DNA from: an uncultured delta proteobacterium
GTDB lineage: Bacteria > Myxococcota > Myxococcia > Myxococcales > Myxococcaceae
Direction of reading: 5' to 3'
DNA: 64,000 nt
Assembly: GCA_963796055.1 (NCBI GenBank)
Contig: CAWCKH010000003.1
Location: 704,001 to 768,000, forward strand
Part shown: piece by piece, positions 35,797 through 55,400 of the stretch
Position numbering within the stretch: position 1 is the stretch's first letter
Layout of the letters: every line of letters begins with the position of its first letter
Position numbers and translations under genes: made by a program
The notes under the pieces: model-generated
Databases searched by the model: none
Told to the model about the DNA's origin: nothing
The model's input: only the letters and a program-made list of their open reading frames with translations

Positions 35797-38700
35797 GAGC
35801 AGACTTCCCTTGATTCTCGCAGTCGTCGCCCTCGTCAGGTGTGGGGACACCGAGCTCCCCAGCCCCGCGCCCACGTCGGTCAGCCCCGGCCGCGGCTTCG
35901 CGGGCAACGCCACGCCGGTCGTGATCCAGGGCAACGGCTTCTCCGTCCGCACCGTCCAGTCGGCGTCGGGCGGTGCACCCACGGTGGACGAGACCTTCCA
36001 GGCATGGATGGGAGACCAGGCGCTGCTCGACGTTCACCGGGTCGACCAGCAGACGCTCACCGCCACCGTTCCGGCCGGGCTCTCCCCCGGGGTCAAGACC
36101 CTGCGCGTCCAGGGGCCGTTCGGCACCTCCGGTGAGCTTCCCAATGCCTTCACGGTCGAGGGCACTGCCCTGGCTTCGATCTCCGCCACCATCGCCGCCG
36201 CGCCGCCAACGGTCAGCATCGGCCAGGTGATCACGGTCACGGCGACGGTCACCAACACCGGGACGACCTCGGCCACCGGCGCCGCACCCACCCCTCCCAC
36301 GGTGAGCGGGACTGGCGCGGCGGACCCGTCCAGCGGGCCCGATCCAGCCTCGATCGCCACGTTGGGCCCGGGTGAATCGGAAACCTTCACCTGGACCTAC
36401 TCCGCCACCGGCGCGGGAACGCTCGCCTTCGCATCCTCGGTCCACGCCACCGACAGCTTCTCCGGCACCACGATCACCGCGGTGACCGATCCGGCCAGCC
36501 CGGCGACGGTCACGGTGGTGCGCCCGGCGGCGCTGACCGCGAGCCTTCCCTCTTCCGGGGCTGCCGCGTTCGGCCGCGAGTTCACGGTCATGATGACGGT
36601 GAACAACACCGGCGGGGCGGCGGTGAAGAACCTGGTGCCGGCTGTGCCCACGGTGGCTCCGAGCGGACTTGCGGCCCTGAAGGCCGGCACCGGGCCGGTC
36701 CCGGTCTCCGTCGACTCGCTCCTCCCGGGGGCGAGCGCCACCTTCACCTGGACATTCGTGGCCGGCAACACCCCCGGCAAGGTGCAGTTCTCCTCGAGCG
36801 CAAGCGGGAACGACGACAACTCCGGGGCGCCGGTGGCTTCCCCCGTCGCCACCTCGGGTGACTTCACCGTCGGCGCGGCGGGGCTGAACGCCTCGCTGTC
36901 CGCCGCGCCGGCGACGGCCAGCGTCGGGCAGCCCCTCACCTTGACGCTGACGGCGACCAACCCCGGGCTCGCGGACGTCCGGAACTTCGCCGTGAGCACC
37001 CCCAGCGTCGACTCCACCGATGGCGCCAACGCCGCGCTGGCCACGGGCCCCACTCCGGCGCCGCCCGCGGTGCTCGCCGCCGGACAGACCGTCAACATCG
37101 CCTGGACCTACGACCCGGCGTTGACCCCGGGCCTCTCCTCGGGGCACCTCGCCTTCGGGGTCATTGCGAGCGGCACCGACGGGTTCTCCGGCGATCCGAT
37201 CACCGCGCAGCCCGCGGCGTCGTCCACCGTCCAGTCCCCGCCGACGCTGGTTGCCAGCCTCACCGCGGCGCGGACGCCACCGGTTCCCACCGGCCAGCCC
37301 TTCACCGTGAACACCGGCCAGGCATTCACCTTGAGCCTCGCGGTGAGCAACACCGGAGGGGCGTCGGCGGTGGCGGTCACCGCCACGCCGATTGCCGGGT
37401 GCGCGGCGCCCTCTCCCGCCTCGTCCACAGTCACGCCCGGGAATCCGGTGGTCTTCCTCTACGCGAGCTGCTCCTCGGCCGCGGCGGGGACGCTCACCCC
37501 CTCGGCCTCCGCGTCGGGCATGGACGCCAATAGCCCCTCGACGGCGGTGACGTCGAATCCATCGAGCGTCACAGTGGTCGTGCAAACCCCGGCGGCGGTC
37601 ACCGCCACCGTGCTGGCAACGTCGCCGTCGACTCTCAGCGTCGGGCAGGCATTCACCGTCACCCTGACCCTGACAAAGACCGGAACGGCCGCGGCCAACG
37701 TCACCGGCGTGTCGCTCACCGGCACGACCTGCGCCACCGGCCCCGCGATGCCGGTGAACGCCATCGGCGCAACCCTGAACCTCACCTGGTCCGGGTGCAC
37801 GGCGCCCGCGACCCCGCAGACGCTCACCTTGGCGGGCTCCGTGACGTGGGTGGACACCAACACCGGGACGGTCCGGACGGCAGGCCCCGTCTCGGCCTCC
37901 GTTCCGGTCGTCGCCGCCGCCTTGGTGGCCGCCACGAACATCACCACGACCCCGGCCACCCTGAGCACGGGACAGACCTTCTCCATCACCCTGACCCTCA
38001 CCAAGTCGGGCGGGGCTGCGGCGAACGTGACCGTCGCCACGACGAGCTACTCCCCGCCCTGCCTGAGCCCGCCGGCGTTCCCGATCAACAACATCGCGGC
38101 GACCCAGGCCCTCGTCTGGAGCAATTGCACCGCGCCGTCGACCGCGGGGGCCTTGGCCCTGGCCGGCTCGGCGACCTGGGAGGACGCCAACGTGCCGGGG
38201 GTCTTCAACACCACGAACCTGACGGCAACCTCGATTGTCGTGCAGCAGGCCGCCGCGCTGTCGGCCAGCTTCGCGGCCCAGCCGCCTCCCACCGCCAGCG
38301 TCGGGCAACCCCTGGCGCTCACGGTCGCGGTGTCGAACACCGCCGGCGCCGGGGGAGCGACCGCGAACAACGTGACCGTCACCGCTTCCGTCACCGGGAC
38401 GCTCGGCGCGACCGCCTCCTGCACCGGGGCCAGTCCGGGCGCCTCGTCCATCGCCGGGGGTGCGTCGCTGCCGTTCACCTTCACCTGCACCCCACTCACC
38501 ACAGGCACGCTCACCTTCACCGCCACGGTGAACGGCACGGCGGCGAACAGCGGAACCGCGCTGACCGCGGCCGCCACCACATCGCCGGCGACGACGATCC
38601 AGACACCGGCGGCCCTGGCCGTGACCTTCGCCTCGCAGCCCCCGTCCCCGGTCAACGCCGGACAGGTGGTCTCCCTGACCGCGAACGTCCGCAACACCGC

Positions 38701-39907
38701 TGGGGCGGGCGGGGCGGCGGCGACTACGGTCTCGGTGACCCCGAGCTTCTCGACGGTGACGGGAACAGCGGCCGCCTCCTGCTCCACGGCCTCCCCGGCC
38801 TCCTCGACCATCGCCGCCAACTCCACCGTGCCGTTCACCTTCACCTGTACACCCTGGGGGGCGGGAACCCTCACCTTCACCGCGACCGCGAACGGCACCG
38901 CAGCAAACACCGGCAACGCGCTCACCGCTGCGGCCACCACCTCGCCGGCGACGATCGTGCTCGCCCCGGTCGTCATCGCCCCCGCGACGGCAAGCGTTCC
39001 CCCGAGGGGAGTCCTGACCTTCATCGCCAGCGGCGGAAGTGGATCTGGCTTCACCTGGTCGCTGTCCACCAACGCCTCGGGCGGATCCGTCAACGCCAGC
39101 ACCGGCGCCTACACCGCCGGCGCGACGGGGAGTGTCACCGATGTGGTCCGGGTCGTCGACTCGCTCGGCAACGCCGCGACCCGCACCGTCGCGGTCGGAC
39201 CCGGAGTCTCCATCTCCGGAGTGACGGCGGTCGCCCCTCGCGGGTCGGCGACCTTCACCGCGAGCGGCGGCAGCGGCTCGGGCTACGCCTGGTCGCTGTC
39301 CACCAACGTCTCGGGCGGGTCCATCAATGCCAGCACCGGCGTCTACACCGCCGGCGCCACACCCAACGTCACCGACGTGGTCCGGGTCGTCGACTCGCTC
39401 GGCAACGGTGCCAACCAGAACGTGACGGTCGGGGCGGGCGTCTCCATCTCCGGAGTGACGGCGGTCGCCCCTCGCGGGTCGGCGACCTTCACCGCCAGCG
39501 GCGGCAGCGGCTCGGGCTACGCCTGGTCGCTGTCCACCAACGTGTCGGGCGGGTCCATCAATGCCAGCACCGGCGTCTACACCGCCGGCGCCACACCCAA
39601 CGTCACCGACGTGGTCCGGGTCGTCGACTCCCTCGGCAACGCGGCCACCCAGAACGTGGCGGTCGGGCCTGGCGTCTCGATCAGCGGTCCGGCCACGGTC
39701 CCGGTCTCAGGCTCGGCGACCTTCACCGCCAGCGGCGGCAGCGGCTCGGGCTACACCTGGGCGCTGTCCACCAACGCCTCGGGCGGGACCATCAATGCCA
39801 GCACCGGCGTCTACACGGCCGGCGCCACACCCAACGTCACCGACGTCGTGAGCGTCCAGGATTCCGTGGGGAATTCAGCCAGCGCCACCGTGTCGGTGAC
39901 CCCCTAG
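35786..39907 (+). CDS. Giant Ala/Thr/Ser-rich surface lipoprotein (1373 aa) with IPT/TIG and tandem Ig-like repeats
   Basis: Lipobox LVRC; SVSP..G..V.IQG.GF IPT start; many beta-sandwich repeats. Confidence 0.85.
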   Translation: MSTRSRLPLILAVVALVRCGDTELPSPAPTSVSPGRGFAGNATPVVIQGNGFSVRTVQSASGGAPTVDETFQAWMGDQALLDVHRVDQQTLTATVPAGLSPGVKTLRVQGPFGTSGELPNAFTVEGTALASISATIAAAPPTVSIGQVITVTATVTNTGTTSATGAAPTPPTVSGTGAADPSSGPDPASIATLGPGESETFTWTYSATGAGTLAFASSVHATDSFSGTTITAVTDPASPATVTVVRPAALTASLPSSGAAAFGREFTVMMTVNNTGGAAVKNLVPAVPTVAPSGLAALKAGTGPVPVSVDSLLPGASATFTWTFVAGNTPGKVQFSSSASGNDDNSGAPVASPVATSGDFTVGAAGLNASLSAAPATASVGQPLTLTLTATNPGLADVRNFAVSTPSVDSTDGANAALATGPTPAPPAVLAAGQTVNIAWTYDPALTPGLSSGHLAFGVIASGTDGFSGDPITAQPAASSTVQSPPTLVASLTAARTPPVPTGQPFTVNTGQAFTLSLAVSNTGGASAVAVTATPIAGCAAPSPASSTVTPGNPVVFLYASCSSAAAGTLTPSASASGMDANSPSTAVTSNPSSVTVVVQTPAAVTATVLATSPSTLSVGQAFTVTLTLTKTGTAAANVTGVSLTGTTCATGPAMPVNAIGATLNLTWSGCTAPATPQTLTLAGSVTWVDTNTGTVRTAGPVSASVPVVAAALVAATNITTTPATLSTGQTFSITLTLTKSGGAAANVTVATTSYSPPCLSPPAFPINNIAATQALVWSNCTAPSTAGALALAGSATWEDANVPGVFNTTNLTATSIVVQQAAALSASFAAQPPPTASVGQPLALTVAVSNTAGAGGATANNVTVTASVTGTLGATASCTGASPGASSIAGGASLPFTFTCTPLTTGTLTFTATVNGTAANSGTALTAAATTSPATTIQTPAALAVTFASQPPSPVNAGQVVSLTANVRNTAGAGGAAATTVSVTPSFSTVTGTAAASCSTASPASSTIAANSTVPFTFTCTPWGAGTLTFTATANGTAANTGNALTAAATTSPATIVLAPVVIAPATASVPPRGVLTFIASGGSGSGFTWSLSTNASGGSVNASTGAYTAGATGSVTDVVRVVDSLGNAATRTVAVGPGVSISGVTAVAPRGSATFTASGGSGSGYAWSLSTNVSGGSINASTGVYTAGATPNVTDVVRVVDSLGNGANQNVTVGAGVSISGVTAVAPRGSATFTASGGSGSGYAWSLSTNVSGGSINASTGVYTAGATPNVTDVVRVVDSLGNAATQNVAVGPGVSISGPATVPVSGSATFTASGGSGSGYTWALSTNASGGTINASTGVYTAGATPNVTDVVSVQDSVGNSASATVSVTP
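38970..39904 (+). repeat. Four intragenic tandem repeats, 234-bp (78-aa) period
   Basis: Unit starts at ~38972, 39206, 39440, 39674; units 2 and 3 nearly identical. A 360-bp duplicated module also lies at ~38250-38960. Confidence 0.92.
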
Positions 39908-40126
39908 CCAGCAAGTCCAGGTGTCCATGGGCCGAACCGGGTCGGGCCGCGCCATCTCCGATCGGTAGCGCCGGACGAGTCGCTTCCCAACCTGTCCAGG
40001 GTCGGACGCGAGCCTCGGCGGTCAAACTTGAGAATGGAGCCGCTCGCCACCTATTAATTCCTGTCAAACGTATAGTGGCGAGGATTTCTTTTCTACCACC
40101 TACCGATTCAGTGTAGTGTCCACCGC

Positions 40127-40897
40127 ATGCCAAGAACGCTCGATCCGATGAGGGCGATCACCGGCGCCCTCCGAGGCCTGGAAGGCGCGATGCGCGCGCT
40201 GGTGGAGGAAAACACCCATCTCAGGAAGCAGGTGCTCCTCGACGGGCGGAGCGGGAGAGGTCGGATCGCCCGCGTTGGCCGGGCTGGTGATGGAGTGCCC
40301 CGCAAGCGGGGCCGTGCCTTCAAGTTCACCGATGATCAGGCGAACGAGTTCCGCAAGCAGGTCGAGGGTGGCAAGAGCGCCGCCTCCCTGGCCAAGGAGC
40401 TGAAGGTCTCGCTCCCCACCATGTACAACACCCTCAAGCGCGCAGGCTGGAAGCCGCGCACCGGGCGCGGGCGAGGATCCGCCGGCCGCACCGTCCGGGT
40501 GTCCGACGGGGTCCCGCGCAAGCGGGGGCGGGCCTTCAAGTTCACGGCCAATCAGGCGAGCGAGTTCCGCAAGCAGGTCGAGGGTGGCAAGAGCGCCGTC
40601 TCCCTGGCCAGGGAGCTGAAGGTCTCGCTCCCCACCATGTACAACACCCTCAAGCGCGCAGGCTGGAAGCCGCGCACCGGGCGCGGACGAAACCCCACCC
40701 GGCGCGCGGCCAGGATGCGCGACGGGGCTCCGCGCAAGCGCGGGCGGGCGTTCAAGTTCACCGTGGATCAGGCGGGCGAGTTCCGCAAACAGGTCGAGGG
40801 TGGCAAGAGCGCCGCCTCCATGGCCAAGGAGCTGAAGGTCTCGCTCCCCACCATGTACAACACCCTCCGGCGCGCAGGCTGGAAGGGCCGCAGGTAG
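40127..40897 (+). CDS. Basic DNA-binding protein: coiled coil plus three tandem RGR-HTH repeats
   Basis: Three copies of RKRGRAFKFT..QA.EFRKQVEGGKSA.S.A.ELKVSLPTMYNTL.RAGW with a 216-bp period (40319, 40535, 40751). Confidence 0.85.
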   Translation: MPRTLDPMRAITGALRGLEGAMRALVEENTHLRKQVLLDGRSGRGRIARVGRAGDGVPRKRGRAFKFTDDQANEFRKQVEGGKSAASLAKELKVSLPTMYNTLKRAGWKPRTGRGRGSAGRTVRVSDGVPRKRGRAFKFTANQASEFRKQVEGGKSAVSLARELKVSLPTMYNTLKRAGWKPRTGRGRNPTRRAARMRDGAPRKRGRAFKFTVDQAGEFRKQVEGGKSAASMAKELKVSLPTMYNTLRRAGWKGRR

Positions 40898-41036
40898 CGC
40901 AGGGGCTGGCAGGTGGGCGACCGCCCCTGTTCTCTGGAGAACGGGGCCTCCTGGACCCGGTGATGGGTGCGGACGCACGCGTTCCTTGAAGCCGCGCCTC
41001 GACCGGTGTCTCATCGGCACCGAGGGGAGCGGGCAG

Positions 41037-41387
41037 ATGCGGCGAAGAGCGTTGCTGATGCTACCTGCGGCGGCGTTCCTGGCAGCGACGACGTTCACCA
41101 CCACCACGCTCCACCCTCGCCGCTCCGAGGCAGCTCGAGACGAGATTTCACCGATTGCACCTTCACCACCGCGGTGGGCGAGAAGGACCTCCAGTGCGAA
41201 GGGCTCACCGAGACCTTTGGAGACGTCTCGGGAGATACCTTCATCCGCCTGTATTACGACTGCAGAGTTCCTTTCCTGCATCTCCACCTGCGGGTTTGTG
41301 GATGGGCAGTACGCCGGCTGCGATGGCTACCCCGGCGCGCACAAGGCAATGGGCTGCTCGACCGTGGGCTCGAACATGCCGAGGTAG
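41037..41387 (+). CDS. Small secreted Cys-rich protein, possibly frameshifted
   Basis: Signal-like MRRRALLMLPAAAFLA; Cys-rich segments split across two frames. Confidence 0.35.
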   Translation: MRRRALLMLPAAAFLAATTFTTTTLHPRRSEAARDEISPIAPSPPRWARRTSSAKGSPRPLETSREIPSSACITTAEFLSCISTCGFVDGQYAGCDGYPGAHKAMGCSTVGSNMPR

Positions 41388-43538
41388 CTCGCGGGCGCGC
41401 TCCGCTCGTCCTCCGGACCGGACAGAGGCGGAGGACTCTCCGCCAGCGCTTCCGGAGACTCCGAAGAGCGGGAGACGGGGGTCGAAGCCGCGACCCTCGC
41501 TTGGGAAGCGCATCCGCGGCGATTCCGCCGCTTCCACCGGTTCACACCCGTTGGGCCAGAGTCGTAGTTCCGAGGGCTTGGCCGAGGCGGAGGAGGCCGG
41601 GCCCCTTCCATCCGCTCCATCGATTCCACCGGTTCCGCTCCCGCTTGTTTCACCGCTTGCTTCAGGGGTCCGGGGGCAAACCACCGTGCGGACCCAGGGG
41701 ACCAGTCTGGACCCGAGCGAAGCCACCGCGCCCGTCACCGCCGGAGCCGCCTCCTCGGTCAGCATCTGCTTGATCTGCCGCTCCGCGAGCCTATGGATGC
41801 GGCGCATCCACCGCGAGGGCTCGAGCTTCAGCGAGGCCAGCTCCCTCGGCCGAACTACTTGCGGCTGACCGAGGAAGTCGACGTGGAGCTCCTCGGGTCG
41901 GACCGGGAGGCCAGGAGCCAGCGCCGACATCTTCTCCAGAAGGTGCCGCAGGCGATCGCGGCTGCCGAGGAGCTCGGCCCGGAGGCGGTCCAGGACCTCG
42001 CCCACGACTTCGGCCAGAACGTCACCGACCACCGCTCCGACGGGACTCTCGGCCGAGTCGGCCAACATCCGCGTGAGCTCGCCTGCCGCGCGATCGAGAG
42101 CACGAGGGGTGGCAGCCTCGAGCGCCTGGACCAGCGTGCCGCAGCGGCGCTCCGCCTCCCGGAGCACCTGCTCGGCATCCAGCGCGAGCTGCTCGAGTTC
42201 CTTCCGTCCGGCATCGCCGGAGGTGGTCGGGCCGCTGGTGATGACTGCGAGGCGGGCCTTCAACGTCGCCGCCACGCCCTGCTGGAGAGCCGCGAGCTTG
42301 CGCTCTGCCGACGTCCGGCTCAGGGTGGCCACCTGCGAGACGAGGGGGCCGACCTCCCGCTCGAACCAATCCTCGGCCAGCTGTCGCTCCGTGCCCACCG
42401 TGCTCACCAGACCGACCGGAATGTCGACGCCGAGGTGCGAGTGGAGCTGCCCGGCGAGGTAATCGCGGACACGCTCCCGATCCGAGCCCGACAGCAGGTC
42501 GACTTTGCTCAGGGCGACCTTGACCGGAATCCCCGATTCGTACAGCAGCCGGACGATGTCCAGGTCCTCCCGTCCCGGGGCGCTCGCCCCATCGACCAGG
42601 AGGACTCCAAGGTCGCACCTGGGGAGGTAGGCATAGGAGGCGCGGGCTCCGGAGGTGGCGAGCGAGCCGACGCCAGGAGTGTCGACCAGCGCGACGTCGC
42701 CCCGGAGTCGATGCGAAGGGACATGGGCCACCACCCGCACGACGCGCCTGGCATTGCCCGGGTTCCGCTGCTCCGAGACGTACTCCCCGAGCTGCTCGAG
42801 GCCCACCTCCATGGGCTCGCGCTCCGCGAGATGAATCTCCGCCTTCGGGACCTCGCCCAGGACGATCCGGGTGGGAACCGCGGTGACCGGGGTCACGCCC
42901 ACTGGCAGGACGTTCGTGCCGAGAACGGCGTTGAGAAGGGAAGACTTGCCCGAGCTGACCCGCCCGAACACCGCGATGTCGAACGTCTTTGTCTCGAGCC
43001 GCTCGAGGAGGGCCTCGAGCAATCCGCGGAACTCGACCAATCCCTGTTCGCGGATGACGCGCTCCAGAACCGCCACCCGCCGGACGTCAAACGGTACGCC
43101 CTCCAGGCGCTGCAGCCTGGTGCCGAGGTCCCGCCCGAGCCCCTCGACGATGTACGCGTGGAGCCGGCGGACGATCCGGTCAAGGGCGCGCTGGATCAAG
43201 CGCTGATCCTCCTCGCTCAGCAGGCCGTACCCTCGCAGGCGAGAGGGTGAGGTCTCCTCGATGGTGATCTCCGCGAAGGTCAGCGAGGTCTGGATCGCCC
43301 AGGTTGCCGTCACCCGGGGCTTCGCGAGCTGAAGCCCCAGCCCCTGGTATGCCTCGAGCAGTCGCTCGTGGAGGCGTTCCAGATAGTCGGCCACCACCTG
43401 CTGCTGCGCGGGCTGGAGGTCCGGAGAAATCTCCGAGAACGCGGACTGCCGGGACGAGGCCGCCCGCTCGACCTCCCGGATCAGGCGATCCAGCTGGACG
43501 AAGGTTGCGGTCAGCACGCGGCGGTGGTTGTCGTTCAA
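41241..43538 (-). CDS. Bacterial dynamin-like GTPase B (C-terminus probably truncated near 41680)
   Basis: G1 GRVSSGKS, G2 PVTAVP, G3 VDTPG, G4 SKVD; TTG start overlapping the upstream stop. The tail after ~41680 is low-complexity and reads through the att copy. Confidence 0.85.
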   Translation of the reverse strand: MNDNHRRVLTATFVQLDRLIREVERAASSRQSAFSEISPDLQPAQQQVVADYLERLHERLLEAYQGLGLQLAKPRVTATWAIQTSLTFAEITIEETSPSRLRGYGLLSEEDQRLIQRALDRIVRRLHAYIVEGLGRDLGTRLQRLEGVPFDVRRVAVLERVIREQGLVEFRGLLEALLERLETKTFDIAVFGRVSSGKSSLLNAVLGTNVLPVGVTPVTAVPTRIVLGEVPKAEIHLAEREPMEVGLEQLGEYVSEQRNPGNARRVVRVVAHVPSHRLRGDVALVDTPGVGSLATSGARASYAYLPRCDLGVLLVDGASAPGREDLDIVRLLYESGIPVKVALSKVDLLSGSDRERVRDYLAGQLHSHLGVDIPVGLVSTVGTERQLAEDWFEREVGPLVSQVATLSRTSAERKLAALQQGVAATLKARLAVITSGPTTSGDAGRKELEQLALDAEQVLREAERRCGTLVQALEAATPRALDRAAGELTRMLADSAESPVGAVVGDVLAEVVGEVLDRLRAELLGSRDRLRHLLEKMSALAPGLPVRPEELHVDFLGQPQVVRPRELASLKLEPSRWMRRIHRLAERQIKQMLTEEAAPAVTGAVASLGSRLVPWVRTVVCPRTPEASGETSGSGTGGIDGADGRGPASSASAKPSELRLWPNGCEPVEAAESPRMRFPSEGRGFDPRLPLFGVSGSAGGESSASVRSGGRAERARELPRHVRAHGRAAHCLVRAGVAIAAGVLPIHKPAGGDAGKELCSRNTGG
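41466..41507 (-). repeat. att-like repeat: degenerate 3' half of tRNA-Gly(CCC)
   Basis: Minus strand TTCCCAAGCGAGGGTCGCGGCTTCGACCCCCGTCTCCCGCTC; matches 55401-55443 with one substitution and one deletion. Confidence 0.85.
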
Positions 43539-44290
43539 CCTCCACCCCCGGAGGCACGCGAAGCGCTCGGCGTGAGGTACTGCCGCGCGACGGCGACCGC
43601 ACGCTCGGTCCGCAGCCGCTCGCCGCGGATCCGGCCCTCCCTCCACGACTGCGGATCCTCGAGTGCCTGAACGAGCACCGACAGGATGCCCGGCCGTCCA
43701 GCGGCGATCTCGAGCAACAGCGCCCGATCCTCCACCCCAGGAGCTCGAGGCAGGCGCGCAGCTTCGAGCCGCCTCTCGAGCAGCGCTCGCATCTGGCGCG
43801 ACCCGAGCGGCGGAACCGCAACTTCCAGATACGCAAGGCGAAGCGCCCGAACACCAGCGTGATCCCGTGCGTGCTCGACGTCCGCAGCGAGAGCGACTCC
43901 GAGCCCGGTACCTCGAAGCGAGCGCAGGTATCCCTTCAGCGCGGTCCCGGCAGCACGCACTCCGTCCAGGAGCAACGTTCCCCGCTGGCGCTCGACGGCG
44001 AGCCGAAGCAGGCCGCGCACGTGGGACTGCCGTCCCTGTGCACTCGTCGCGGGGTAGGCGCGGAGCAGGGCCTGGGTGACGTCGGAGAGGTGCTCCGTCC
44101 GGCGGGCGTACCCGCACGGACACCCGGACGCGAGGGCGCGTCGTCGGAGTTCGAGGAGCAGCGCGGTCTTTCCCACCCCCAGTGGTCCATGGAGCAGGAG
44201 CGTTTGCCCCTCCGCGACCTGCCGCTCCAGCGAGTCCAGCAGGGCCGCCCGGCCGAGAAGCCCGGCTGAATGCGTGCCCTCGCCCATCAC
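43535..44290 (-). CDS. P-loop (AAA+-like) ATP-binding protein
   Basis: LLGR, Walker A GPLGVGKT, Walker B LLLD, AAGRPG; coupled to both neighbours. Confidence 0.75.
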   Translation of the reverse strand: MMGEGTHSAGLLGRAALLDSLERQVAEGQTLLLHGPLGVGKTALLLELRRRALASGCPCGYARRTEHLSDVTQALLRAYPATSAQGRQSHVRGLLRLAVERQRGTLLLDGVRAAGTALKGYLRSLRGTGLGVALAADVEHARDHAGVRALRLAYLEVAVPPLGSRQMRALLERRLEAARLPRAPGVEDRALLLEIAAGRPGILSVLVQALEDPQSWREGRIRGERLRTERAVAVARQYLTPSASRASGGGG

Positions 44291-44769
44291 GGCCTCAAGG
44301 TCGCGGTCAGCCGCCGCGGCTCAAGCAGGAGGTCCAGTGCGTCGGTGACGCTGCCCACCACGACGTCCGCGGCGCGCAGAAGCTCAGACGAGAGCCCTTC
44401 CGGCCCGAGGACCGCGATCGCCAGCGTGGCCGAGCGCATCATCGGCACGTCGTTCCGTCCGTTCCCCACGGCCACGACACCACGCCGAGCATTGACGAAC
44501 AGGCCCTTCTCGGCTCCGGTCTCCACGGTGTGGACCCGCAGGGGCAGCCCGCGAAGCGCGGCCCTCGCGCTCCCGAAGGTGTCGGCGGTCAGGACGTGGA
44601 CCTCGAGCCGGCGCGAGAGCCGGACGAGTCGCTTCCGGAGGCCCGGCAGCAGCTCGCCGTCGCGCGCCAGGGTGCCGTTGAAGTCGAGGACGAGGTGCGA
44701 GAGGCGCAGTGGGGGCGCGAGCCCCAGCTCGACGGTGAGTGGCTCGACTCGATCGGCGGGCGGGACCAT
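44287..44769 (-). CDS. HAD-superfamily hydrolase ('soluble P-type ATPase'-like)
   Basis: LDFNGTLA (motif I), TADTFG, K, VGNGRND (motif IV). Confidence 0.85.
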   Translation of the reverse strand: MVPPADRVEPLTVELGLAPPLRLSHLVLDFNGTLARDGELLPGLRKRLVRLSRRLEVHVLTADTFGSARAALRGLPLRVHTVETGAEKGLFVNARRGVVAVGNGRNDVPMMRSATLAIAVLGPEGLSSELLRAADVVVGSVTDALDLLLEPRRLTATLRP

Positions 44770-44824
44770 GAACACTCCCGAGGGCTGCGAACTCCGGGGC
44801 CATCCCACCCGAAGCTCAGCAGCG

Positions 44825-45205
44825 TCACCCGACCTCCTCACCAGCCCTGAGCAGGAGCCTCCGGATTCCTCCCCTGGGCTCCGCGACGTCTCCCCAGCGC
44901 CGGGGGATGACGTGGAAGTGCAGATGGGAAACGGTCTGCCCCGCCGCCTCGCCGACATTGACCCCCACGGTGAACCCATCCGCCCGGTGGCGGTCCAAGA
45001 TGCTGGCCCGGACCGGAACGGTCGCCTCGGCAAGCGCTCCCCGCTCCGAGTCGGACGCGTCGAACCAGGTCAGGACGTGCCGCCGGGTGATGATCAGGGC
45101 GTGCCCCGGCGCGGCGGGATGCAGGTCCCAGAGCGCGAGGACCTCCGGTCCTTCCCAGAAGACCAGCCGCGGGTCGGGCGGACAGAATGGGCAGGAGGTG
45201 CTCAT
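44825..45205 (-). CDS. HIT-family nucleotide hydrolase
   Basis: [26 protein letters not shown]. Confidence 0.92.
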
Positions 45206-46500
45206 CGGTGCTGCGGGACCCTGGGGAACGCCCGCATCCCGATGTAGCGGGCGTGGGTTCCGAGCTCTCGCTCGATGCGGAGCAGCTGGTTGTACTTCGC
45301 GAGCCGCTCTCCCCGGCACGGCGCCCCGGTCTTGATCTGCTGGGCCCCAGTGGCCACCGCGAGGTCGGCGATGAAGTCGTCCGTCGTCTCTCCCGAGCGG
45401 TGGCTGACCACCAGCGACATCCCCGCCGAGCGAGCCACTTGCATCGTCTCCAGCGTCTCGCTCAGCGTGCCGATCTGGTTGGGCTTGATCAGCACCGAGT
45501 TGGTCACCTTCTCCTCGATGGCCCGCCGCACCCGTGTGACGTTGGTCACCAGGAGGTCGTCACCGACCAGCTGGATGCGCTCACCGAGCGCCCGGGTGAG
45601 GAGCTTCCATCCCTCCCAGTCGTCCTCGGCCAGGCCGTCCTCGATTGACCAGATCGGGAACTGGCGAACCCAGTTCTCGTAGAAGGCGACCATCTCCTCC
45701 GAGCTCCGGCGCCGCCCGTCCGACTTCCGGAACACGTAGGCGCTCCCATCGTGGAACTCGCTTGCCGCCGGGTCGAGCGCGATGCCCACGTCCTTTCCAG
45801 GCTTGTACCCGGCGCGGACGATCGACTCGAGCAGCAGCTCCACGGCCTCCTCGTTCGACTTGAGGTTGGGCGCGAACCCGCCCTCGTCGCCGACGTTGGT
45901 CCCGTACCCGCGCTGCTTCAGGAGCGCCTTCAGCGCCTGGTAGCACTCAACCGCGACCTGCATGGCGCTCTGGAAGCTGATCGCCCCGGCGGGAACGAGC
46001 ATGAACTCCTGGAGGTCGACGCTGTTGTCGGCGTGGACGCCCCCGTTGAGGACGTTCAGCAGCGGGACCGGGAGCACCTCGCCGGGCGGCTCGACGATGG
46101 CCCGGTAGAGCGGCAGCCCGCGGCTTGCGGCGTTGGCCCGGGCGACCGCGAGCGAGACGCCCAGGATGGCGTTGGCTCCAAGGCGGGACTTGTTCGGCGT
46201 TCCGTCCAGCGCCAGCAGCTTGGCGTCGACCTGTCGGAAGTCTGCCGGCGCACCCGCCAGCGCGGCGGAGATCTCTCCGTTGACGTGCCCCACCGCGAGG
46301 AGGACGCCCCGGCCGCCGTAGCGCTTCGGCTCGTGGGTGTCCCGCAGCTCGACGGCCTCGCCGCTGCCGGTGGAGGCGCCGGAAGGCACGCTCGCCCGCC
46401 CCAGGTGCCCGTCCCGCAGCTCGACGTCGACCTCCACCGTGGGATTCCCTCGGGAGTCGAGGATCTCCCGAGCGCAAACCCGTGCAATCTCCGCCGTCAT
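45202..46500 (-). CDS. eno: Enolase (accessory copy)
   Basis: [61 protein letters not shown]. Confidence 0.97.
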
Positions 46501-48278
46501 GTGACCTCCGATGCAGTCGGTGCGACGACGAGCAGTCCTGTTTGCCGGGTGAGCTCGTCGAGATGCTCCAGCTCCGTTCTGACCTGACCTGCTCCCAGCG
46601 CCTGGGCCCGGCGCGCCTCCTCCACCGCATCGCGGGAACGAGCACGCACGACGCCCAGCTTCCGGCGCAGCTCTTCCCTGAGCAGCCGGGCGCTCTCCTC
46701 GGCTCTCTCCGCGAGATCGAACTGGACGCGCGAGCTGTTGGCCTCGAGGAGGCGAAGGAAGTAGTGCCGCGCATGGCGCAGGATCGACCCCCGGCGCCAA
46801 GAGACGGGGAAGAGCTGGTCGAGGACCCACGACCACGGTGGCTCCCCGGTCAGCTGCATCAGGGAGGCGAAGCGCCTCTGGCTGGGGACCCGGAATCCGA
46901 GGTCGAGGTCCATGTCGGCCAGGCCCGGGGCCTCGAGCGCCCTGGCGGCACGGCCGAGGAATTCGCTCGCGATGCGGGTCAGTCGCTCGGATGCGGCCCG
47001 GTGTAGCTCCTCGGCCCGAGATCCCTCCTCGCGCAGCCAACCCTCGGTGACTTCCCGGGCGGTGCTCTCGGCCAGGTCGAGACTCTGCGCGCGGACGGCA
47101 TGGGGACGGCCGCCCAGGCCCGCGATTCGGCCCTGTAGCGCGGAGACACCTGCCGGCGCAGCGCTGGCCAGGAACTCCTGCCGCTGCTCCTCCAGCGCCG
47201 AGCGGAGCCGTTCCACCTCGACGCGGAAGGCGACGTCGAGCAACCGGAGCGACTGCTCCAGCCCATCCACCGCCGCGAGGAGCGCCTTCATCCGCCGCTC
47301 CGATTCCTCGAGCGGAACAGTGAGCGCCAGCCTGCGCTCCTCGAGCACCCCCAAAAGCTCACCCCGCAGTCGCATCAGGCCGCGCCAGGCGGCCCCCGAG
47401 GCCAGCCGGGTGCCCTCGTTGGCCGAGAGCTCCTCCAGGGCCGTCACCAGAGCTTTCCAGTCGCGTCCTCCGCTGCCGCCAGCGAGACGCTCCTGGGCGC
47501 TGACCTCGAAGTGGCGCGAACCATCGGGCACTCCGGCCTCGATGAGCACCGAGGTGGTGAAGGTCCGGGCCTCCTCGAGCGCGGCCGTGTCCATCCGATC
47601 CGCCTTGTTGAGGACGAAGAGGAAATGCTCCACGCGCCGGGACAGCTCGATGACCAGCTCGAGCTCGCGTGCCGCGATGGGAGGATCCCCTCCCAGGACG
47701 ATGAGGGCAGCGTCCACCTGCGGCAGGAAGGCGAGCGTGGTCCGGGTGTTCTCCAGGTAGGTGGACTCGATTCCTGGGGTATCGACCAGGCACATCCCGT
47801 GCGCGAGGATGGGAGCTGGAAGGAGCACCTCTGCCGCATCCAGCCGCTTGCGGTTGCGGGGGTTCTGCTCCTCGGTCACGTACGCGGCGAGCTCGGCGCG
47901 CGGAATCTCCTCCCAGTCGCCGCCGCCCACGCGGATCCGGATGGTCTCGCGCGGTCCATGCCGAACGACGACGGCCGCCGAGGTCATCGGCCGGACCCCC
48001 ACTGGGAGCACCGGGGTTCCGAGAAGCGCGTTGATGAGCGTCGACTTCCCTCGTTTGAACTGACCCAGGCAGGCCACGAAATACCGGCCGGCCACGGTGC
48101 GCTCGCGAAGCCGGTCCGCCTCGTCGGCGAGGTCGGCCATGCGGGCCCGCCGGCCCAGCGCAGAGAGCTGGGACAGGGAGGCAGCCACCTCCGGTTCCCC
48201 CGTCTGTTCCACCAGTGCAGTCATCGTCCGCTCCAGGACCGGAACAAGGGTGTCCTGAAGACGTCGAGCGGTGCCCAT
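46497..48278 (-). CDS. Bacterial dynamin-like GTPase A
   Basis: G1 [22 protein letters not shown]; helical C-terminus; GAGGAG RBS. Confidence 0.9.
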
Positions 48279-48329
48279 CGCGGTCTCCTCGTGGCGTCAC
48301 GCATGCCCCGCGGACGCGTCGTTGCGTTC

Positions 48330-48379
48330 GCAGGAGTCATTGGCTCGCTCCGAGCAGTTCCGGCGGACTCCACCGCCTC
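48330..48379 (-). promoter_or_regulatory. Fluoride riboswitch (crcB motif) before the dynamin-enolase operon
   Basis: GAGGCGGTGGAGTCCGCC-GGAACTGC...GCCAATGACTCCTG: P1 GGCGG/CCGCC and pseudoknot GGAGT/ACTCC. Confidence 0.85.
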
Positions 48380-48497
48380 TGTGTCAACCTTTACATCTAC
48401 GCAGTCGAGGCTGACTTCTCAAGGGGTGAGAGCAGCCCTGGGTGGACCGATGGGCCTGGCGGAGCGGCGTCGGTCCCGGTACGGTTGGTGACCAGTC

Positions 48498-48558
48498 GAG
48501 GCGGTGGAGTCCGCCATGAACCGCCGGTCGGCGTGTCCGAGCGGCCAATGACTCCTGT
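48498..48558 (+). promoter_or_regulatory. Fluoride riboswitch (crcB motif) before the antiporter operon
   Basis: GAGGCGGTGGAGTCCGCCATGAACCGCC...GGCCAATGACTCCTG, with the same P1 and pseudoknot. Confidence 0.88.
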
Positions 48559-48606
48559 GAGCGTGGGGAGACCGCAACGGTTCCCCCGGTTTCACGGGAG
48601 GCGTCC

Positions 48607-48687
48607 ATGGCCAAGGTCCTCGAGAAGCGCAAGGCACCCACGGAAGTCAACCGCTGGCTTTCCGCACGTCGCGGTGTCTGGCCGTGA
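48607..48687 (+). CDS. 26-aa leader ORF MAKVLEKRKAPTEVNRWLSARRGVWP
   Basis: GGGAGG RBS; its TGA overlaps the antiporter GTG (GTGA). Confidence 0.55.
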   Translation: MAKVLEKRKAPTEVNRWLSARRGVWP

Positions 48688-49886
48688 CTCAGGTCTGGAC
48701 GCTCGCCGCACTATGGCTCGGGCTGGCGCTGCTGGCCACTCTGCTCTCCATCTGGTTCCGGGTGGCGACGGCCCTGTCGGAGATCGTCGTGGGCACGGTC
48801 GCCCAGTTGGTCATCGGAGCGCTGATCGGCGGTGCGGTGCTCGGAACGGACCAGGGCTGGATCAAGTTCCTCTCCGGCACCGGGGCCATCGTCCTCACCT
48901 TCCTCGCCGGCGCAGAGCTCGATCCGGTGGTGTTCCGAGCGCGCTGGAAAGAGGCCACGCTGATCGGGGCGGTCGGGTTCTTCGCACCGTTCCTCGGCTG
49001 CGCGTTCATCGCCCACTGGGTGCTGCACTGGGGTTGGAGGCCCAGCTGGCTCGCCGGTGTCGCTCTGTCCACGACCTCGGTGGCGGTGGTCTATGCGGTG
49101 ATGCTCGAGCTCGGCCTGAACAAGACCACCTTCGGGAAGGCGGTCCTCGCGGCCTGCTTTGTCAACGACCTGGGCACGGTCATCGCCCTGGGGTTGATCT
49201 TCGCTCCGTTCGGCTCCCGGACCCTGGCCTTCGTGGGAGTGGGCATCGCGGTCTTTGCCGTGCTCCCCTGGCTCACCCCGCGCTTCTTTCGCCGCTACGG
49301 TGGGAGACCCTCCGAGCTGGAGGCGAAGTATCTCCTGTTCCTGCTGTTCGCACTGGGAGCCCTCGCGTCCTGGGCCGACAGCGAGGCCGTCCTTCCCGCC
49401 TACGTCGTGGGGATGGTCCTGGCCGGAACGGTGGGAAAGGACCACGTGCTGGTCGCCCGTCTCCGGACCCTGACCTTCGGACTGCTCACTCCGTTCTACT
49501 TCATCCGCGCCGGGTCGTTCGTCTCGGTCCCGGCGCTGCTCGCCGCCCCGCTGGTCTTCCTCGTGCTCTTCCTGGCGAAGATGGTGACCAAGACCGTCGG
49601 GGTGTTTCCGGCCACCAAGGCGGTCGGCTACCCCCGGCTGGAGGCGCGTTACACCACCCTGCTCATGTCCACCGGTCTGACGTTCGGGAGCATCTCCGCC
49701 CTTTTCGGCCTCAATCACGGCATCATCGACCAGGCCCAGTACTCGCACCTGGTGGCGACGGTCATCATGAGCGCGGTCGCCCCGACGGTCATCGCCAATG
49801 CCTTCTTCCTCCCTAGACATCTACTCCCGAGCGCTCCACCGGCGGGCCTCGTCGCGGCTGGGCCGGCGAAGCAGGCGGAGCTCTGA
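48684..49886 (+). CDS. Cation:proton antiporter (Na+/H+ exchanger/CPA family)
   Basis: About 12 TM helices; FLAGAELD, LSTTSVAVV, FVNDLG, PFYF. Confidence 0.88.
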   Translation: MTQVWTLAALWLGLALLATLLSIWFRVATALSEIVVGTVAQLVIGALIGGAVLGTDQGWIKFLSGTGAIVLTFLAGAELDPVVFRARWKEATLIGAVGFFAPFLGCAFIAHWVLHWGWRPSWLAGVALSTTSVAVVYAVMLELGLNKTTFGKAVLAACFVNDLGTVIALGLIFAPFGSRTLAFVGVGIAVFAVLPWLTPRFFRRYGGRPSELEAKYLLFLLFALGALASWADSEAVLPAYVVGMVLAGTVGKDHVLVARLRTLTFGLLTPFYFIRAGSFVSVPALLAAPLVFLVLFLAKMVTKTVGVFPATKAVGYPRLEARYTTLLMSTGLTFGSISALFGLNHGIIDQAQYSHLVATVIMSAVAPTVIANAFFLPRHLLPSAPPAGLVAAGPAKQAEL

Positions 49887-49915
49887 GATGGTGGAATGAG
49901 GAGCAGGAGGAAACC

Positions 49916-51208
49916 ATGGCGCTCGAGGGTCGAGGGAAGCGGGTGCGCATCTACGTGAACGAGGGTGCCCGGGTCGGCCACCAGTCGGCAGACATCGCGA
50001 TCCTCACCTTCCTTCGTCGCGAGAACGCGGCCGGAGCCACCGTCTTCCGCGCCATCGAGGGCTTCGGCGGGCACGGCGAGATCCACACCGCGCGCCTGGT
50101 GGACGTGGCCCAGGCGCTGCCGATGGTCATCGAGTGGGTCGACTCGGAGGAGCGCGTCGAGCGCCTGCTGCCCCGGGTCAAGGAGCTCGTCCCGCGCGGG
50201 CTCATCACCGTCGATCCGACCGAGATCGTCCTTTACGAGCCCTATCCTGTTCGCCGCGTCTCGAGTCATCTGACCGCCGCCAACGTCATGTCCCACGACG
50301 TCACCGCCGTCGGGCCCCAGGTGCCGGTTCGCCAGGTCGTGGAGCTGCTTCTCGGGCGGGTCTACCGGGCCGTTCCCGTCATCGACGGAACGGTTCCGGT
50401 CGGGATCATCAGCAACTCCGACCTGGTCACCCGCGGAGGCCTCACCGTCCGGATGGAGCTGTTACCCAGCCTCGAGGGCCCCGAGCTCCACGACGTGCTC
50501 GAGCGGCTCGCCAGGCAACAGAAGACCGCCGGCGAGATCATGACCCCGCACCCGGTGACCGTGCTCGCCACGACGCCACTCCCAGAGGTCGCGCAGATCA
50601 TGGCTCGGCGCCATCTCAAGCGGCTGCCGGTGGTGGGCCCAGGGGGTGGGCTGGTCGGGATCGTCAGTCGTCTCGATCTGCTCCGCACGGTCGCCGAGGG
50701 CTTCTCGCGAAACCAGCCCGAGCCCGACCAGGTCGGGCTGAACGGCGACGCGCCGATCGGGAAGGTGATGCGTCGCGACGTCCCGACCGTCTTCCCGGAG
50801 ACCTCGGTCCCGGAGGTGATGCAGGCCGTGTTCTCCACCCGGCTGAATCGCGCGGTGGTGGTGGATGCCGAGCGCCATGTCCTGGGCCTGGTCACGGACG
50901 CCGAGCTCCTGGAACGGGTCACCCCGTCGTTGAAGCCGAGCGCGCTCCAGTCACTGATGCACCGCCTGCCGCTCCTTCCTCGGCGTCAGGATGCCCGAGG
51001 AGTCGAGCAGCACGCGCTCGCCCATACTGCCCGGGAGCTGATGGTGCGGGCAATCCCGACTGCGGAGGAGAGCACCCCGCTCCGCCAGGCGCTCCGCTCC
51101 ATGCTCGAAGGCAAGGAGAAGCTCATTGCAGTCGTCGACGGTCAGCGCAAGCTGGTGGGCGTCGTCGACCGCGCGGACATTCTCCGGGGTCTGGCGGCGC
51201 CCGGATAG
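49916..51208 (+). CDS. DUF190 (PII-like) domain fused to four CBS domains
   Basis: AGATVFRAIEGFG, LPMVIEWVD (DUF190); four CBS repeats (VMSHDV, IMTPHP, VMRRDV, LMVRAI). Confidence 0.88.
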   Translation: MALEGRGKRVRIYVNEGARVGHQSADIAILTFLRRENAAGATVFRAIEGFGGHGEIHTARLVDVAQALPMVIEWVDSEERVERLLPRVKELVPRGLITVDPTEIVLYEPYPVRRVSSHLTAANVMSHDVTAVGPQVPVRQVVELLLGRVYRAVPVIDGTVPVGIISNSDLVTRGGLTVRMELLPSLEGPELHDVLERLARQQKTAGEIMTPHPVTVLATTPLPEVAQIMARRHLKRLPVVGPGGGLVGIVSRLDLLRTVAEGFSRNQPEPDQVGLNGDAPIGKVMRRDVPTVFPETSVPEVMQAVFSTRLNRAVVVDAERHVLGLVTDAELLERVTPSLKPSALQSLMHRLPLLPRRQDARGVEQHALAHTARELMVRAIPTAEESTPLRQALRSMLEGKEKLIAVVDGQRKLVGVVDRADILRGLAAPG

Positions 51209-51217
51209 GAGAGACCC

Positions 51218-51643
51218 ATGTTCTCCAGGATCCTCGTGGGGGTCGACGGCTCGTCCCCGAGTCAGCGCGCCTTCGCGGTCGCGCTCGACCTGGCAAAGCA
51301 CTACCGCGCCCCGCTCCACGTCTGCTCGGTCATCGAAGACGTGCCTAAATATGACGGCGAGTCGATCGCCGACGTCGACGAGGCGGTGGAGCGAGCGCAG
51401 AAGGCGTTCGATCGGGTCTACGAATCACTCGCCGGGGAGGCCAAGCGCGAGAAGGTCAAGCTCGTCCGCCACGTGATGCCCGGTCACCCAGTGGAGGTCC
51501 TCGTACACCTGGCCGAGCAGGAGGGCATCGAGTGCATCGTCCTCGGGGGGCTGGGCCACTCGCGCGTCCTGCGACGGGCTGCCGGGGGGATGGGAACGCA
51601 GGTCGCTTACCACGCACACTGCTCCGTGCTCATCGTGCGCTGA
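51218..51643 (+). CDS. Universal stress protein
   Basis: ILVGVDGS, GHP, IVLG..G, AHCSVLIVR. Confidence 0.92.
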   Translation: MFSRILVGVDGSSPSQRAFAVALDLAKHYRAPLHVCSVIEDVPKYDGESIADVDEAVERAQKAFDRVYESLAGEAKREKVKLVRHVMPGHPVEVLVHLAEQEGIECIVLGGLGHSRVLRRAAGGMGTQVAYHAHCSVLIVR

Positions 51644-51679
51644 GACCCGCCGGCCGCCCTTGCAGGGGCAGTGCTCTAC

Positions 51680-51745
51680 CCTCGATCGGGACTTCCTGGC
51701 ACACTTGCCGAACCGCGTCTGGAGCACCGACATCACCTACGTCGC
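51680..51745 (+). pseudogene. Tiny IS3-family transposase remnant
   Basis: LDRDFLAHLPNRVWSTDITYV resembles the start of the IS3 rve core. Confidence 0.6.
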
Positions 51746-51820
51746 TGGCCCTCCGCGTTCCTGCCGCGGGCCTGGTCCACCACTCCGACCGGGGAAGCTC
51801 AGGATCGCCAAGGGACTTTC

Positions 51821-52264
51821 CTACTGGAGGACGGCCCGCATGGCGACGGCGCTCCTGGGGCACGCTCCATGCAGCTCCTCGGAGGCGTTCAGGACCTCCG
51901 GTAACTCCTCGCGTCGAGCCACGGTGAAGCCGAACCGAGGAAACCAGTCGGGCGCAGTGGTCGTCAGGAGAAAGACGTCGCGGACGCCACCTTCGCGAGC
52001 CCGCTCCAGGAGCGCTCGGACCAGAGCGGTTCCGAGCCCGTTGCCCGCCAAGTTGTCGGCGACTGCCACCGACCGGAGCAGCCCAACGTTCCCGTAGCGC
52101 TCGAGTCCGGCAACTCCGAGCACCGCCCCGTTCGTCTCGCTCGTTGCCACGATGAAATCCGGGAGATGAATGTCCGCGCCCTCGGTCGGCAGATGACGTG
52201 CCTCAAGCAACGCCCGGATCCTGGGCCAGTCGCTCGCGCGTGCCAGGCGGATGGACGGGGTCAC
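51821..52264 (-). CDS. arsN2: Arsenic-resistance GNAT acetyltransferase (ArsN2-like)
   Basis: LLRSVAV, GNGLGTALV, LLTTTA..WF.RFGF, CPRSA; located in the ars operon. Confidence 0.8.
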   Translation of the reverse strand: MTPSIRLARASDWPRIRALLEARHLPTEGADIHLPDFIVATSETNGAVLGVAGLERYGNVGLLRSVAVADNLAGNGLGTALVRALLERAREGGVRDVFLLTTTAPDWFPRFGFTVARREELPEVLNASEELHGACPRSAVAMRAVLQ

Positions 52265-52782
52265 GCGGCAGAGTCCGGGGACTTCAGTCGCTCGAGGCCG
52301 ATGTCCTTCGTCAGCTTCTCCACCTTGAGCCTTTCGAGCTGCTCAAGAGGGAGCGAGGTGAAGATCTGCAAGCGCCGGTACAGGGTGAGAGCGACGCTGT
52401 GGAAGAAGCGTTCCTTTTCGCTCTCGGACCCAACGAAGGCAGCCGGGTCGTCCACGCCCCAATGCGCCACGATCGGCTGTCCCGGCCAGACAGGGCACGT
52501 CTCGCGTGCGTTGTCGCAGACGGTGATCACGAAGTCGAAGTTGGTCCTCCGGAATTCGTCCCACGACTTGCTGCGAGCATCGCTTGCGTCGATCGCAAAA
52601 CGTTCACGGAGCACCTTCACCGCAAGCGGATTCACGACGCCGGTTGGCATGGCCCCGGCGCTGTAGGACTCGAATCGCGCTCCTCCAAGCCGCTTCAGGA
52701 AGTACTCGGCGAAGACGCTCCGGGCCGAGTTGCCGGTGCAGAGGAAGAGCACCCGAAATGGACGACGCTGGTCGGTCTTCAT
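52261..52782 (-). CDS. arsC: Arsenate reductase (LMW-PTPase/thioredoxin type)
   Basis: LFLCTGNSARS, ITVCDNARETCPVWPG, HWGVDDP. Confidence 0.92.
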   Translation of the reverse strand: MKTDQRRPFRVLFLCTGNSARSVFAEYFLKRLGGARFESYSAGAMPTGVVNPLAVKVLRERFAIDASDARSKSWDEFRRTNFDFVITVCDNARETCPVWPGQPIVAHWGVDDPAAFVGSESEKERFFHSVALTLYRRLQIFTSLPLEQLERLKVEKLTKDIGLERLKSPDSAA

Positions 52783-52807
52783 GCGACGGCTCCTGGGGTA
52801 CCGAGGG

Positions 52808-53959: not shown

Positions 53960-53971
53960 CGGGTCGAACCC

Positions 53972-54764: not shown

Positions 54765-54770
54765 GCGATC

Positions 54771-54823
54771 CTTCTAGGACTGTCGAAGGACTCCTGTCAA
54801 CCATATTTCGAGAACCATCGAAA
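54771..54823 (-). promoter_or_regulatory. ars promoter/operator, probably leaderless
   Basis: TTGACA (54795-54800), 18-nt spacer, TAGAAG, then 6 nt to the ATG; dyad TTTCGA-N6-TCGAAA at 54806-54823. Confidence 0.55.
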
Positions 54824-55300: not shown

Positions 55301-55400
55301 CATCGCGTTTGCGAGCGGGAGCGGGACCCAACCGGGCGTTGATGCTCAAAGGGCCGGAGTCCCGAGACGAAAACCCGAGGACGTCCGGCCCTTTTGACTT

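Follow-up and report, generated by a model that had tools for sequence, protein, structure and literature searches.

The question raised by this locus is why two dynamin-like GTPases, here designated DLP-A and DLP-B, are encoded in a single operon with an enolase (eno), a HIT-family nucleotide hydrolase, a HAD-superfamily phosphatase and a small ATPase. The operon lies on the minus strand of a 64,000-nucleotide stretch (hereafter the window; positions 704,001 to 768,000 of contig CAWCKH010000003.1) from an uncultured delta proteobacterium of the Myxococcaceae (GCA_963796055.1). The six genes and their stop/start overlaps agree with an initial annotation of the window, which had proposed that the GTPase pair brackets the enzymes as one membrane-associated stress complex. 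The common feature across related loci is a fluoride riboswitch rather than a physical enzyme complex, and on sequence grounds the DLP-A family, found repeatedly behind such switches, appears to be a component of the bacterial fluoride response that has yet to be described.

Upstream of DLP-A, an intergenic gap of 400 bp holds two divergent fluoride riboswitches (RF01734) detected with Rfam, and the minus-strand copy is located 46 nt before the DLP-A ATG (Table 1). No other fluoride riboswitch was found in the 5.5-Mb genome. The P1, P2 and GGAGU/ACUCC pseudoknot pairs are intact in both. An alignment of 37 riboswitch matches had 96% of its cells paired and a covariation of 0.278, compared with 0.113 after shuffling; these matches were selected by the Rfam model, which biases the alignment toward the RF01734 structure. 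Both riboswitches precede known fluoride-response genes, namely eno and the HAD gene on one side and the genes for a Na+/H+ antiporter and a universal stress protein (USP) on the other. Genes commonly controlled by fluoride riboswitches include those for enolase, HAD phosphatases and Na+/H+ antiporters (PMC11139923, which like PMC5533749 and PMC6104087 is cited here from excerpts); given this known regulon membership, no complex need be invoked to account for them. The initial annotation had also guessed at a buffering of metal-fluoride inhibition, and its fluoride connection is borne out by the riboswitches that head the operon.

Fluoride binding by the window riboswitches, and an increase in expression upon binding, are predicted. 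The plus-strand riboswitch is a predicted translational ON switch, in which the 3' strand of the pseudoknot can pair with the Shine-Dalgarno (SD) sequence of a short leader open reading frame (ORF) preceding the antiporter gene. The anti-SD hairpin recurs with different sequences in two related loci (L118 and L101), giving three lineages in all. The leader ORF has 26 codons in the window, L001, L118 and L101 and 22 in L104, and its amino acids are not conserved, while the overlap of its stop codon with the antiporter start is kept in the relatives. It apparently relays riboswitch control to the antiporter by translational coupling, as judged from this arrangement. No sigma-70-type promoter was found in 48200-48750.

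The regularity of the association was evaluated in metagenomes and in genomes of the class. The metagenome set comprised the best 80 of 571 loci found with a DLP-A alignment; L031, a duplicate of L029, was dropped from all counts, leaving 79 loci. All were scanned with a model built from 37 matches, and 34 of them with Rfam as well; switch matches below 33 bits (L033 and one in L028) were left out of the count. A same-strand switch was present upstream of DLP-A in 47 of the 79 loci, in 34 of the 39 with at least 3 kb of upstream DNA, and in 29 of the 32 with at least 5 kb. The same was true of 26 of the 29 loci that were never used for model building. When the proteins were clustered, an upstream switch was found in 17/18 clusters at 70% identity and 10/10 at 60%. 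DLP-A directly follows the switch as the first gene in 13 of the 79 loci, and there was no recurrent opposite-strand gene between switch and DLP-A. Within Myxococcia, DLP-A was present in 15 of 368 genomes, and 11 of the 13 testable ones, including the window genome, had a same-strand upstream switch (G171 and G200, with no upstream DNA, were left out). As background, any fluoride switch was found in 12 of 101 related genomes, a tally that includes one genome below the cut-off (G060), and in none of 7 control genomes with other full PF00350 dynamins. A scan of genome contigs with DLP-A alone gave only one close locus and one weak match, and a plasmid search gave G-domain-level matches only (21 records, none covering 80%).

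Both GTPases exceeded the cut-off of the Dynamin_N family (PF00350, 27 bits; Table 1) and retain their G motifs, located in DLP-A at residue 72 (G1), T99, DTPG 166 and NKAD 224, and in DLP-B at GRVSSGKS 192, T219, DTPG 286 and SKVD 344. The AlphaFold (AF2) models had predicted local distance difference test (pLDDT) scores of 89.5 for DLP-A and 88.7 for DLP-B. The top Foldseek matches of DLP-A were IniA (E 2e-17) and BDLP (E 4e-17), and also Cj-DLP; the DLP-B model aligned with Fzo1/IniA from residue 144 on (VIA Z 23). The best matches of the two models were IniA, BDLP, Cj-DLP1/2 and mitofusin/Fzo1. Family assignment, motifs and fold agree with the two dynamin-like GTPases with intact G1-G4 initially described, and the hidden Markov models (HMMs) placed both in the dynamin class. 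As modelled, DLP-A and DLP-B are BDLP/IniA/mitofusin-type dynamin-like proteins and belong to no other GTPase class. DLP-A has a helical neck and trunk and a conserved hydrophobic, amphipathic tip at about residues 465-495, and no segment of transmembrane strength was found in it (hydropathy maximum 1.36). Its residues 1-25 are not conserved in a 112-row alignment, and hence there is no conserved N-terminal tether helix. Lipid binding and assembly-stimulated GTPase activity would be expected of proteins in this class.

Gene orders around DLP-A vary widely among the 79 metagenome loci. The neighbours were genes for DUF190/CBS proteins (42 loci), the ATPase (37), crcB (29), the antiporter (25), eno (21), USP (16), a metallophosphoesterase (14) and HAD (3), with HIT in none; the HIT gene is a sporadic passenger in DLP-A loci. 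The commonest core in Myxococcia is switch-(crcB)-DLP-A-eno, and crcB lies immediately upstream of DLP-A in L005, L113, L115 and L116. DLP-B, where present, is on the strand opposite to DLP-A in 4 of 18 loci and adjacent to it in 3 of 18 (L037, L052 and L072). The full order of the window, on whose conservation the initial annotation made its proposal depend, recurs only in L118, a homologous island with 75-83% DNA identity; HIT is degenerate there, and HAD is preceded by a crcB fragment as well as another switch-eno fragment. Read from these comparisons, the six-gene order of the window is not meaningful and reflects ordinary operon shuffling.

Some further features of these clusters were observed. 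The L118 island carries five fluoride-switch copies. Behind another of these, at L118:3700-4250, lies what by eye resembles a MutS domain-V-like ATPase, encoded convergently with DLP-B. A dynamin-like protein of a third type (530-650 aa) is encoded in L027, L029, L036, L046, L069, L085 and L089. A Cys/His-containing protein of ~200 aa occurs in 15 of the 79 loci (e.g. L075:1323-1901), usually between the crcB and DUF190 genes, and had no Pfam match at E 0.001.

Two partners of DLP-A recur. The window ATPase belongs to a family of DLP-A neighbours (E 3e-14) that is often encoded directly before DLP-A. It has a Walker A motif (GPLGVGKT), a GxP motif and a degenerate Walker B (LLLDG; LDH in the family) without the catalytic Glu. 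Its Atlas matches were AAA_22/AAA_16 clusters, its Pfam matches were below the cut-off, and no effector domain was found among them. The second partner, termed Bn, is the N-terminal ~140 residues of DLP-B, which are helical in the AF2 model and lie outside the part aligning with known dynamins. Of the 79 loci, 18 encode a full DLP-B and a different 18 a stand-alone Bn protein that ends at its own stop codon (L081, cut by a contig end, was left out); the two were never found together within one fetched locus, an observation limited by short contigs. In an unrooted FastTree tree the free Bn proteins form several truncations nested among DLP-Bs and two divergent clades, and an RGYG-like motif is kept in all free-Bn groups. 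The Bn profile gave 2,621 representatives at 50% identity. Among the best 150 of these, 64 were at most 210 aa, 61 were at least 600 aa (all with a P-loop) and 25 were of intermediate length; some of the short proteins may be contig fragments. Bn matched no Pfam family (two single-member matches near E 0.007 were ignored) and no PDB sequence below E 0.1, and had no usable Atlas match.

Table 1 Features of the operons, riboswitches and island borders in the window.
Feature	Position	Strand	Remarks
Foreign read-through tail of DLP-B, integrative-element end	41241-41691	-	holds att-like repeat
DLP-B, homologous part, residues 1 to ~616	43538-41691	-	PF00350 81.1 bits
STAND/AAA-like P-loop ATPase, 250 aa	44287-43535	-	AAA_16/AAA_22/nSTAND6 below cut-off
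Small HAD-superfamily phosphatase (DFNGT ... GNGRND)	44769-44287	-	weak TIGR01512/01494 matches
Start remnant of deleted crcB (Fluc), 19 nt	44810-44828	-	overlaps HIT stop (GTGA), with ribosome-binding site, in HIT-HAD gap
HIT-family nucleotide hydrolase (HLHFHVI)	45205-44825	-	passes PF01230
Enolase (eno), second copy	46500-45202	-	TIGR01060 600.8 bits vs cut-off 300
DLP-A, 593 aa	48278-46497	-	PF00350 82.7 bits
Fluoride riboswitch heading DLP-A operon	48324-48386	-	Rfam 42.2 bits vs cut-off 34
Second fluoride riboswitch, heading divergent operon	48491-48564	+	Rfam 39 bits vs cut-off 34
Leader ORF, 26 codons	48607-48687	+	stop overlaps antiporter start
CPA2-type Na+/H+ antiporter	48684-49886	+	PF00999
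DUF190 + 4 CBS domain protein	49916-51208	+	domain matches
Universal stress protein (USP)	51218-51643	+	PF00582
Arsenic-resistance-type operon	51821-54764	-	ArsR-like helix-turn-helix, glyoxalase-fold, SBF/Acr3-like, low-molecular-weight phosphatase/ArsC-like, GNAT (Pfam)
Integrase C-terminal remnant and second att-like repeat, right island border	55044-55443	+	tblastn E 8e-21 (C3:770120 integrase)

Within the DLP-A operon, 4-nt overlaps join DLP-A/eno, eno/HIT and ATPase/DLP-B, HAD and ATPase overlap by 1 nt (TGATG), and HIT and HAD are separated by a 55-nt gap. The operon enolase has all ten catalytic/metal motifs intact and is 58% identical to the second eno of the genome at C3:201948-203222 (tblastn). 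The HAD protein appears from its sequence to resemble the soluble domain of P-type ATPases; a relative scores over the cut-off of PF08282, and the family HMM gave E 1e-74.

This copy of the operon has decayed at its distal end. Homology of DLP-B to its intact orthologues, which are 675-678 aa long and 75% identical to it, ends near residue 616 (about 41691). Beyond that point the reading frame stays open for ~150 more codons, crossing unrelated att-arm DNA as far as 41241. A tblastn search of the whole genome failed to find the conserved last ~60 residues, which include the terminal helix. The window DLP-B, with foreign DNA in place of these residues, lacks a complete C-terminal helix running back to the neck; the orthologues are complete. 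Of the span 41680..48278 initially given, the six-gene operon is real, and the DLP-B end at 41680 is not. The segment 41449-41691 shares 83% identity with C3:771422-771666, where an integrase region ends, and a 43-bp att-like repeat of the tRNA-Gly(CCC) 3' half occurs at 41466-41507, 55401-55443 and C3:771439-771482. The ~14 kb between the att-like direct repeats of the window holds the fluoride operons and the arsenic-type operon, whose genes we take to be ars genes. Fluoride and arsenic, both geogenic toxins, occur together. The GC content is 68.5% for the island and 70.7% for the genome. Three att-like repeats with integrase remnants suggest a tandemly accreted island; an intact tRNA-Gly(CCC) was not called in the assembly by ARAGORN. 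An insertion sequence in DLP-B was considered and dropped in favour of the att/integrase reading. The contigs of four sequencing runs over 39500-56500 contained no piece across the DLP-B junction, and the join may be an assembly artefact.

The crcB remnant in the HIT-HAD gap has a 36-bp match (89%) to L118, where the frame runs on as a crcB-like N-terminus, and is also present in L001; its identity as crcB was judged by eye from the N-terminal sequence and is unscored. The working fluoride exporter of this genome is probably the crcB-DUF190 pair on contig C4. No fluoride switch was found at the genome's crcB, which lies elsewhere than the island, and the translated stretches of three CLC genes lacked the CLC-F signature motifs as given in the excerpts of PMC11139923. 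Within the genus, full-length DLP-A was present only in the window genome and 1 of 12 congeners.

Left of the island, two large secreted proteins with Ig/CARDB repeats (587 and 1373 aa) are encoded at 34033-39907 (plus strand). At 40127-40897 (plus strand) lies a gene for a 256-aa protein with three near-identical 72-aa repeats, each with a basic RKRGRAFKF stretch and a resolvase-type helix-turn-helix. PF02796 is among its helix-turn-helix matches, and a weaker paralogue is present at C3:727038. The protein may bind DNA at several sites or act as a nucleoid protein. A small ORF at 40986-41387 (plus strand) has a signal-like N-terminus and a Cys-rich tail, is possibly frameshifted and had no Pfam match.

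On balance we consider it probable that the window contains a horizontally carried fluoride-stress island whose DLP-A seals or remodels the inner membrane under fluoride. Fluoride enters the cell as hydrogen fluoride (HF), acidifies the cytoplasm and lowers the proton-motive force; it inhibits enolase and phosphoryl-transfer enzymes, and the riboswitch induces exporters, antiporters and spare enzymes (PMC11139923). Upon a rise in fluoride, the amphipathic tip of DLP-A would dock the protein to the inner membrane, which it would then seal or remodel in the manner of DynA, IniA or BDLP, limiting proton and HF leak. The membrane potential on which Fluc and the antiporter depend would thereby be maintained. 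Bn and the ATPase may serve as accessory factors of DLP-A in assembly and recycling, and the DLP-B of the window genome, without its last neck helix, is likely to contribute no more than its Bn domain. We also propose, tentatively and as something less than an even chance, a widespread and undescribed fluoride module in which DLP-A, a minimal STAND-like ATPase and Bn remodel the inner membrane, possibly triggered by GDP-Mg-fluoride. If true, fluoride defence would have, next to export and enzyme back-up, an arm that works by remodelling membranes, and a family of bacterial dynamins would gain an inducer that is a defined small molecule.

Several points weigh against membrane sealing by a fluoride-induced DLP-A. 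The metagenome counts rest on the best 80 of 571 loci, and 28 of the 39 well-flanked loci fall into one 60%-identity cluster, so that the counts do not represent independent events. The upstream switch is missing in 5 of these 39 loci. Two loci from one genus (L007 and L119, genomes G028 and G278) encode a DLP-A at 35% identity, and no switch was found in the DNA upstream of it (4.0 and 1.9 kb), nor any known fluoride-regulon gene near DLP-A; this genus provides a natural control for DLP-A regulation. In the minus-strand leader of the window, no intrinsic terminator was found in 48200-48750, and the SD-occlusion signal is weak (SD unpaired 0.17 free versus 0.66 with the aptamer forced). The window copy is itself degenerate, with DLP-B truncated and crcB deleted. 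Fluoride induction of the operon and a role of DLP-A in tolerance are predictions from sequence, and we infer the membrane-protecting mechanism purely by analogy.

DLP-A might instead be the fluoride effector or sensor itself, with GDP and Mg-fluoride imitating the transition state and locking G-domain dimers to cause assembly, or with the protein acting as a metal-fluoride sink. Its intact G1-G4 motifs speak for this, as does the fact that all the operon enzymes are of metal- or phosphoryl-transfer, fluoride-sensitive types; against it, transition-state trapping usually inactivates GTPases. The structure of Cj-DLP1, solved with GDP.AlF4 (PMC6104087), is a further point in favour, and a further point against is that a protein sink is stoichiometrically small compared with a channel moving 10^6 ions/s (PMC11139923). 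An effector role is unlikely on this evidence, and can coexist with membrane sealing by DLP-A. The frequent proximity of crcB raises the further idea that DLP-A serves the exporter, either by inserting or clustering the dual-topology Fluc or by budding vesicles that carry fluoride or metal-fluoride precipitates. This is quite unlikely: no crcB was seen in 50 of the 79 loci, the window kept DLP-A intact while its crcB was deleted and the genome's crcB lies elsewhere, and Fluc works alone in E. coli.

It is very improbable that the dynamins are passengers or anti-phage cargo of the Eleos/DynA type, with only a positional relation to the switch. The att-like repeats and integrase remnants at the island borders, the patchy distribution of DLP-A in the class and weak partial PADLOC matches (LeoA 47.9 bits, LeoBC 29.9 bits) fit such cargo, but the link to the switch spans many gene orders and sequence clusters and includes loci with DLP-A as the first gene, the identified recurrent neighbours are fluoride or stress genes and none is a defence gene, and other dynamins of the same order are without a switch. 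Least probable of all is the reading of the initial annotation, a membrane-associated stress complex in which DLP-A and DLP-B hold eno, HIT, HAD and the ATPase together. The stop/start overlaps, the same order in L118 and an eno directly after DLP-A in most Myxococcia loci lend it some colour. Against it, HIT, HAD and eno are absent from all, nearly all and most of the metagenome loci, respectively, and in most loci DLP-B is missing, gives way to free Bn or lies on the opposite strand. Moreover, L118, whose island shares its descent with that of the window, no longer has HIT, and the window DLP-B is truncated.

The membrane-sealing role proposed for DLP-A bears on a wider problem. The cellular role of bacterial dynamin-like proteins is largely open, partly for want of inducing conditions, and a riboswitch of known ligand supplies such a condition (NaF), making expression, localisation and phenotype directly testable. 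Bn, with many representatives and no Pfam family, is a ready target. Microbial fluoride tolerance, which constrains efforts to engineer the breakdown and synthesis of organofluorines (PMC11139923), would also gain a membrane-remodelling component.

Among known systems, the locus shares with fluoride-riboswitch regulons (crcB motif, RF01734; PMC2864571 and the excerpts of PMC11139923) the same RNA, the same enolase, HAD and antiporter cargo and, in relatives of the window, crcB; in contrast to them, the window operons have no exporter under the switch. Dynamin-like GTPases, the small STAND-like ATPase and Bn are not named as members of the known regulons. GTPases are not mentioned in PMC11139923, nor a dynamin in the main text or 8 supplements, possibly incomplete, of PMC2864571 (Weinberg 2010), and the literature searched, which did not extend to the gene tables of Baker et al. 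2012, contained no publication linking a fluoride riboswitch with a dynamin. In Enterobacter cloacae FRM, the GI3 operon ppaC-uspA-eno-gpmA-crcB-orf5249 is induced by fluoride, and all six genes contribute to resistance (PMC5533749). It is likewise a fluoride-riboswitch operon with a spare enolase and a USP on a horizontally acquired island, with no dynamin mentioned in that paper, whereas the window has two divergent switches, a deleted crcB and neither ppaC nor gpmA.

Eleos consists of LeoA, LeoB and LeoC (or LeoBC). It shares the dynamin G domain with the window proteins, while the PADLOC matches at the window locus span the profiles only partially and include none of LeoC type, and the context is a fluoride regulon.

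Campylobacter jejuni Cj-DLP1/Cj-DLP2 (PMC6104087; PDB 5owv), the top sequence match, are likewise two dynamin-like proteins of one operon, and one partner of each pair has an extra N-terminal domain, comparable in size (119 aa in the Cj pair, PMC6104087; ~140 aa in DLP-B). It is tempting to liken Bn to the assembly domain of Cj-DLP1, although Bn has no sequence match to Cj-DLP1 or any PDB chain and also occurs as a free protein. Unlike the Cj pair, DLP-A and DLP-B are separated by four genes and so are not side by side; Cj-DLP2 is tethered by an N-terminal helix with no conserved counterpart in the DLP-A family, and the excerpts of PMC6104087 report no fluoride-switch control of the Cj pair. 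Mycobacterial IniA, Nostoc BDLP1, Bacillus DynA and mitofusin/Fzo1 have the same fold as DLP-A and DLP-B at only 16-20% identity. These proteins have stress-linked roles in membrane remodelling or repair (PMC6104087), and the window dynamins differ from them in their inducing signal and in their partners.

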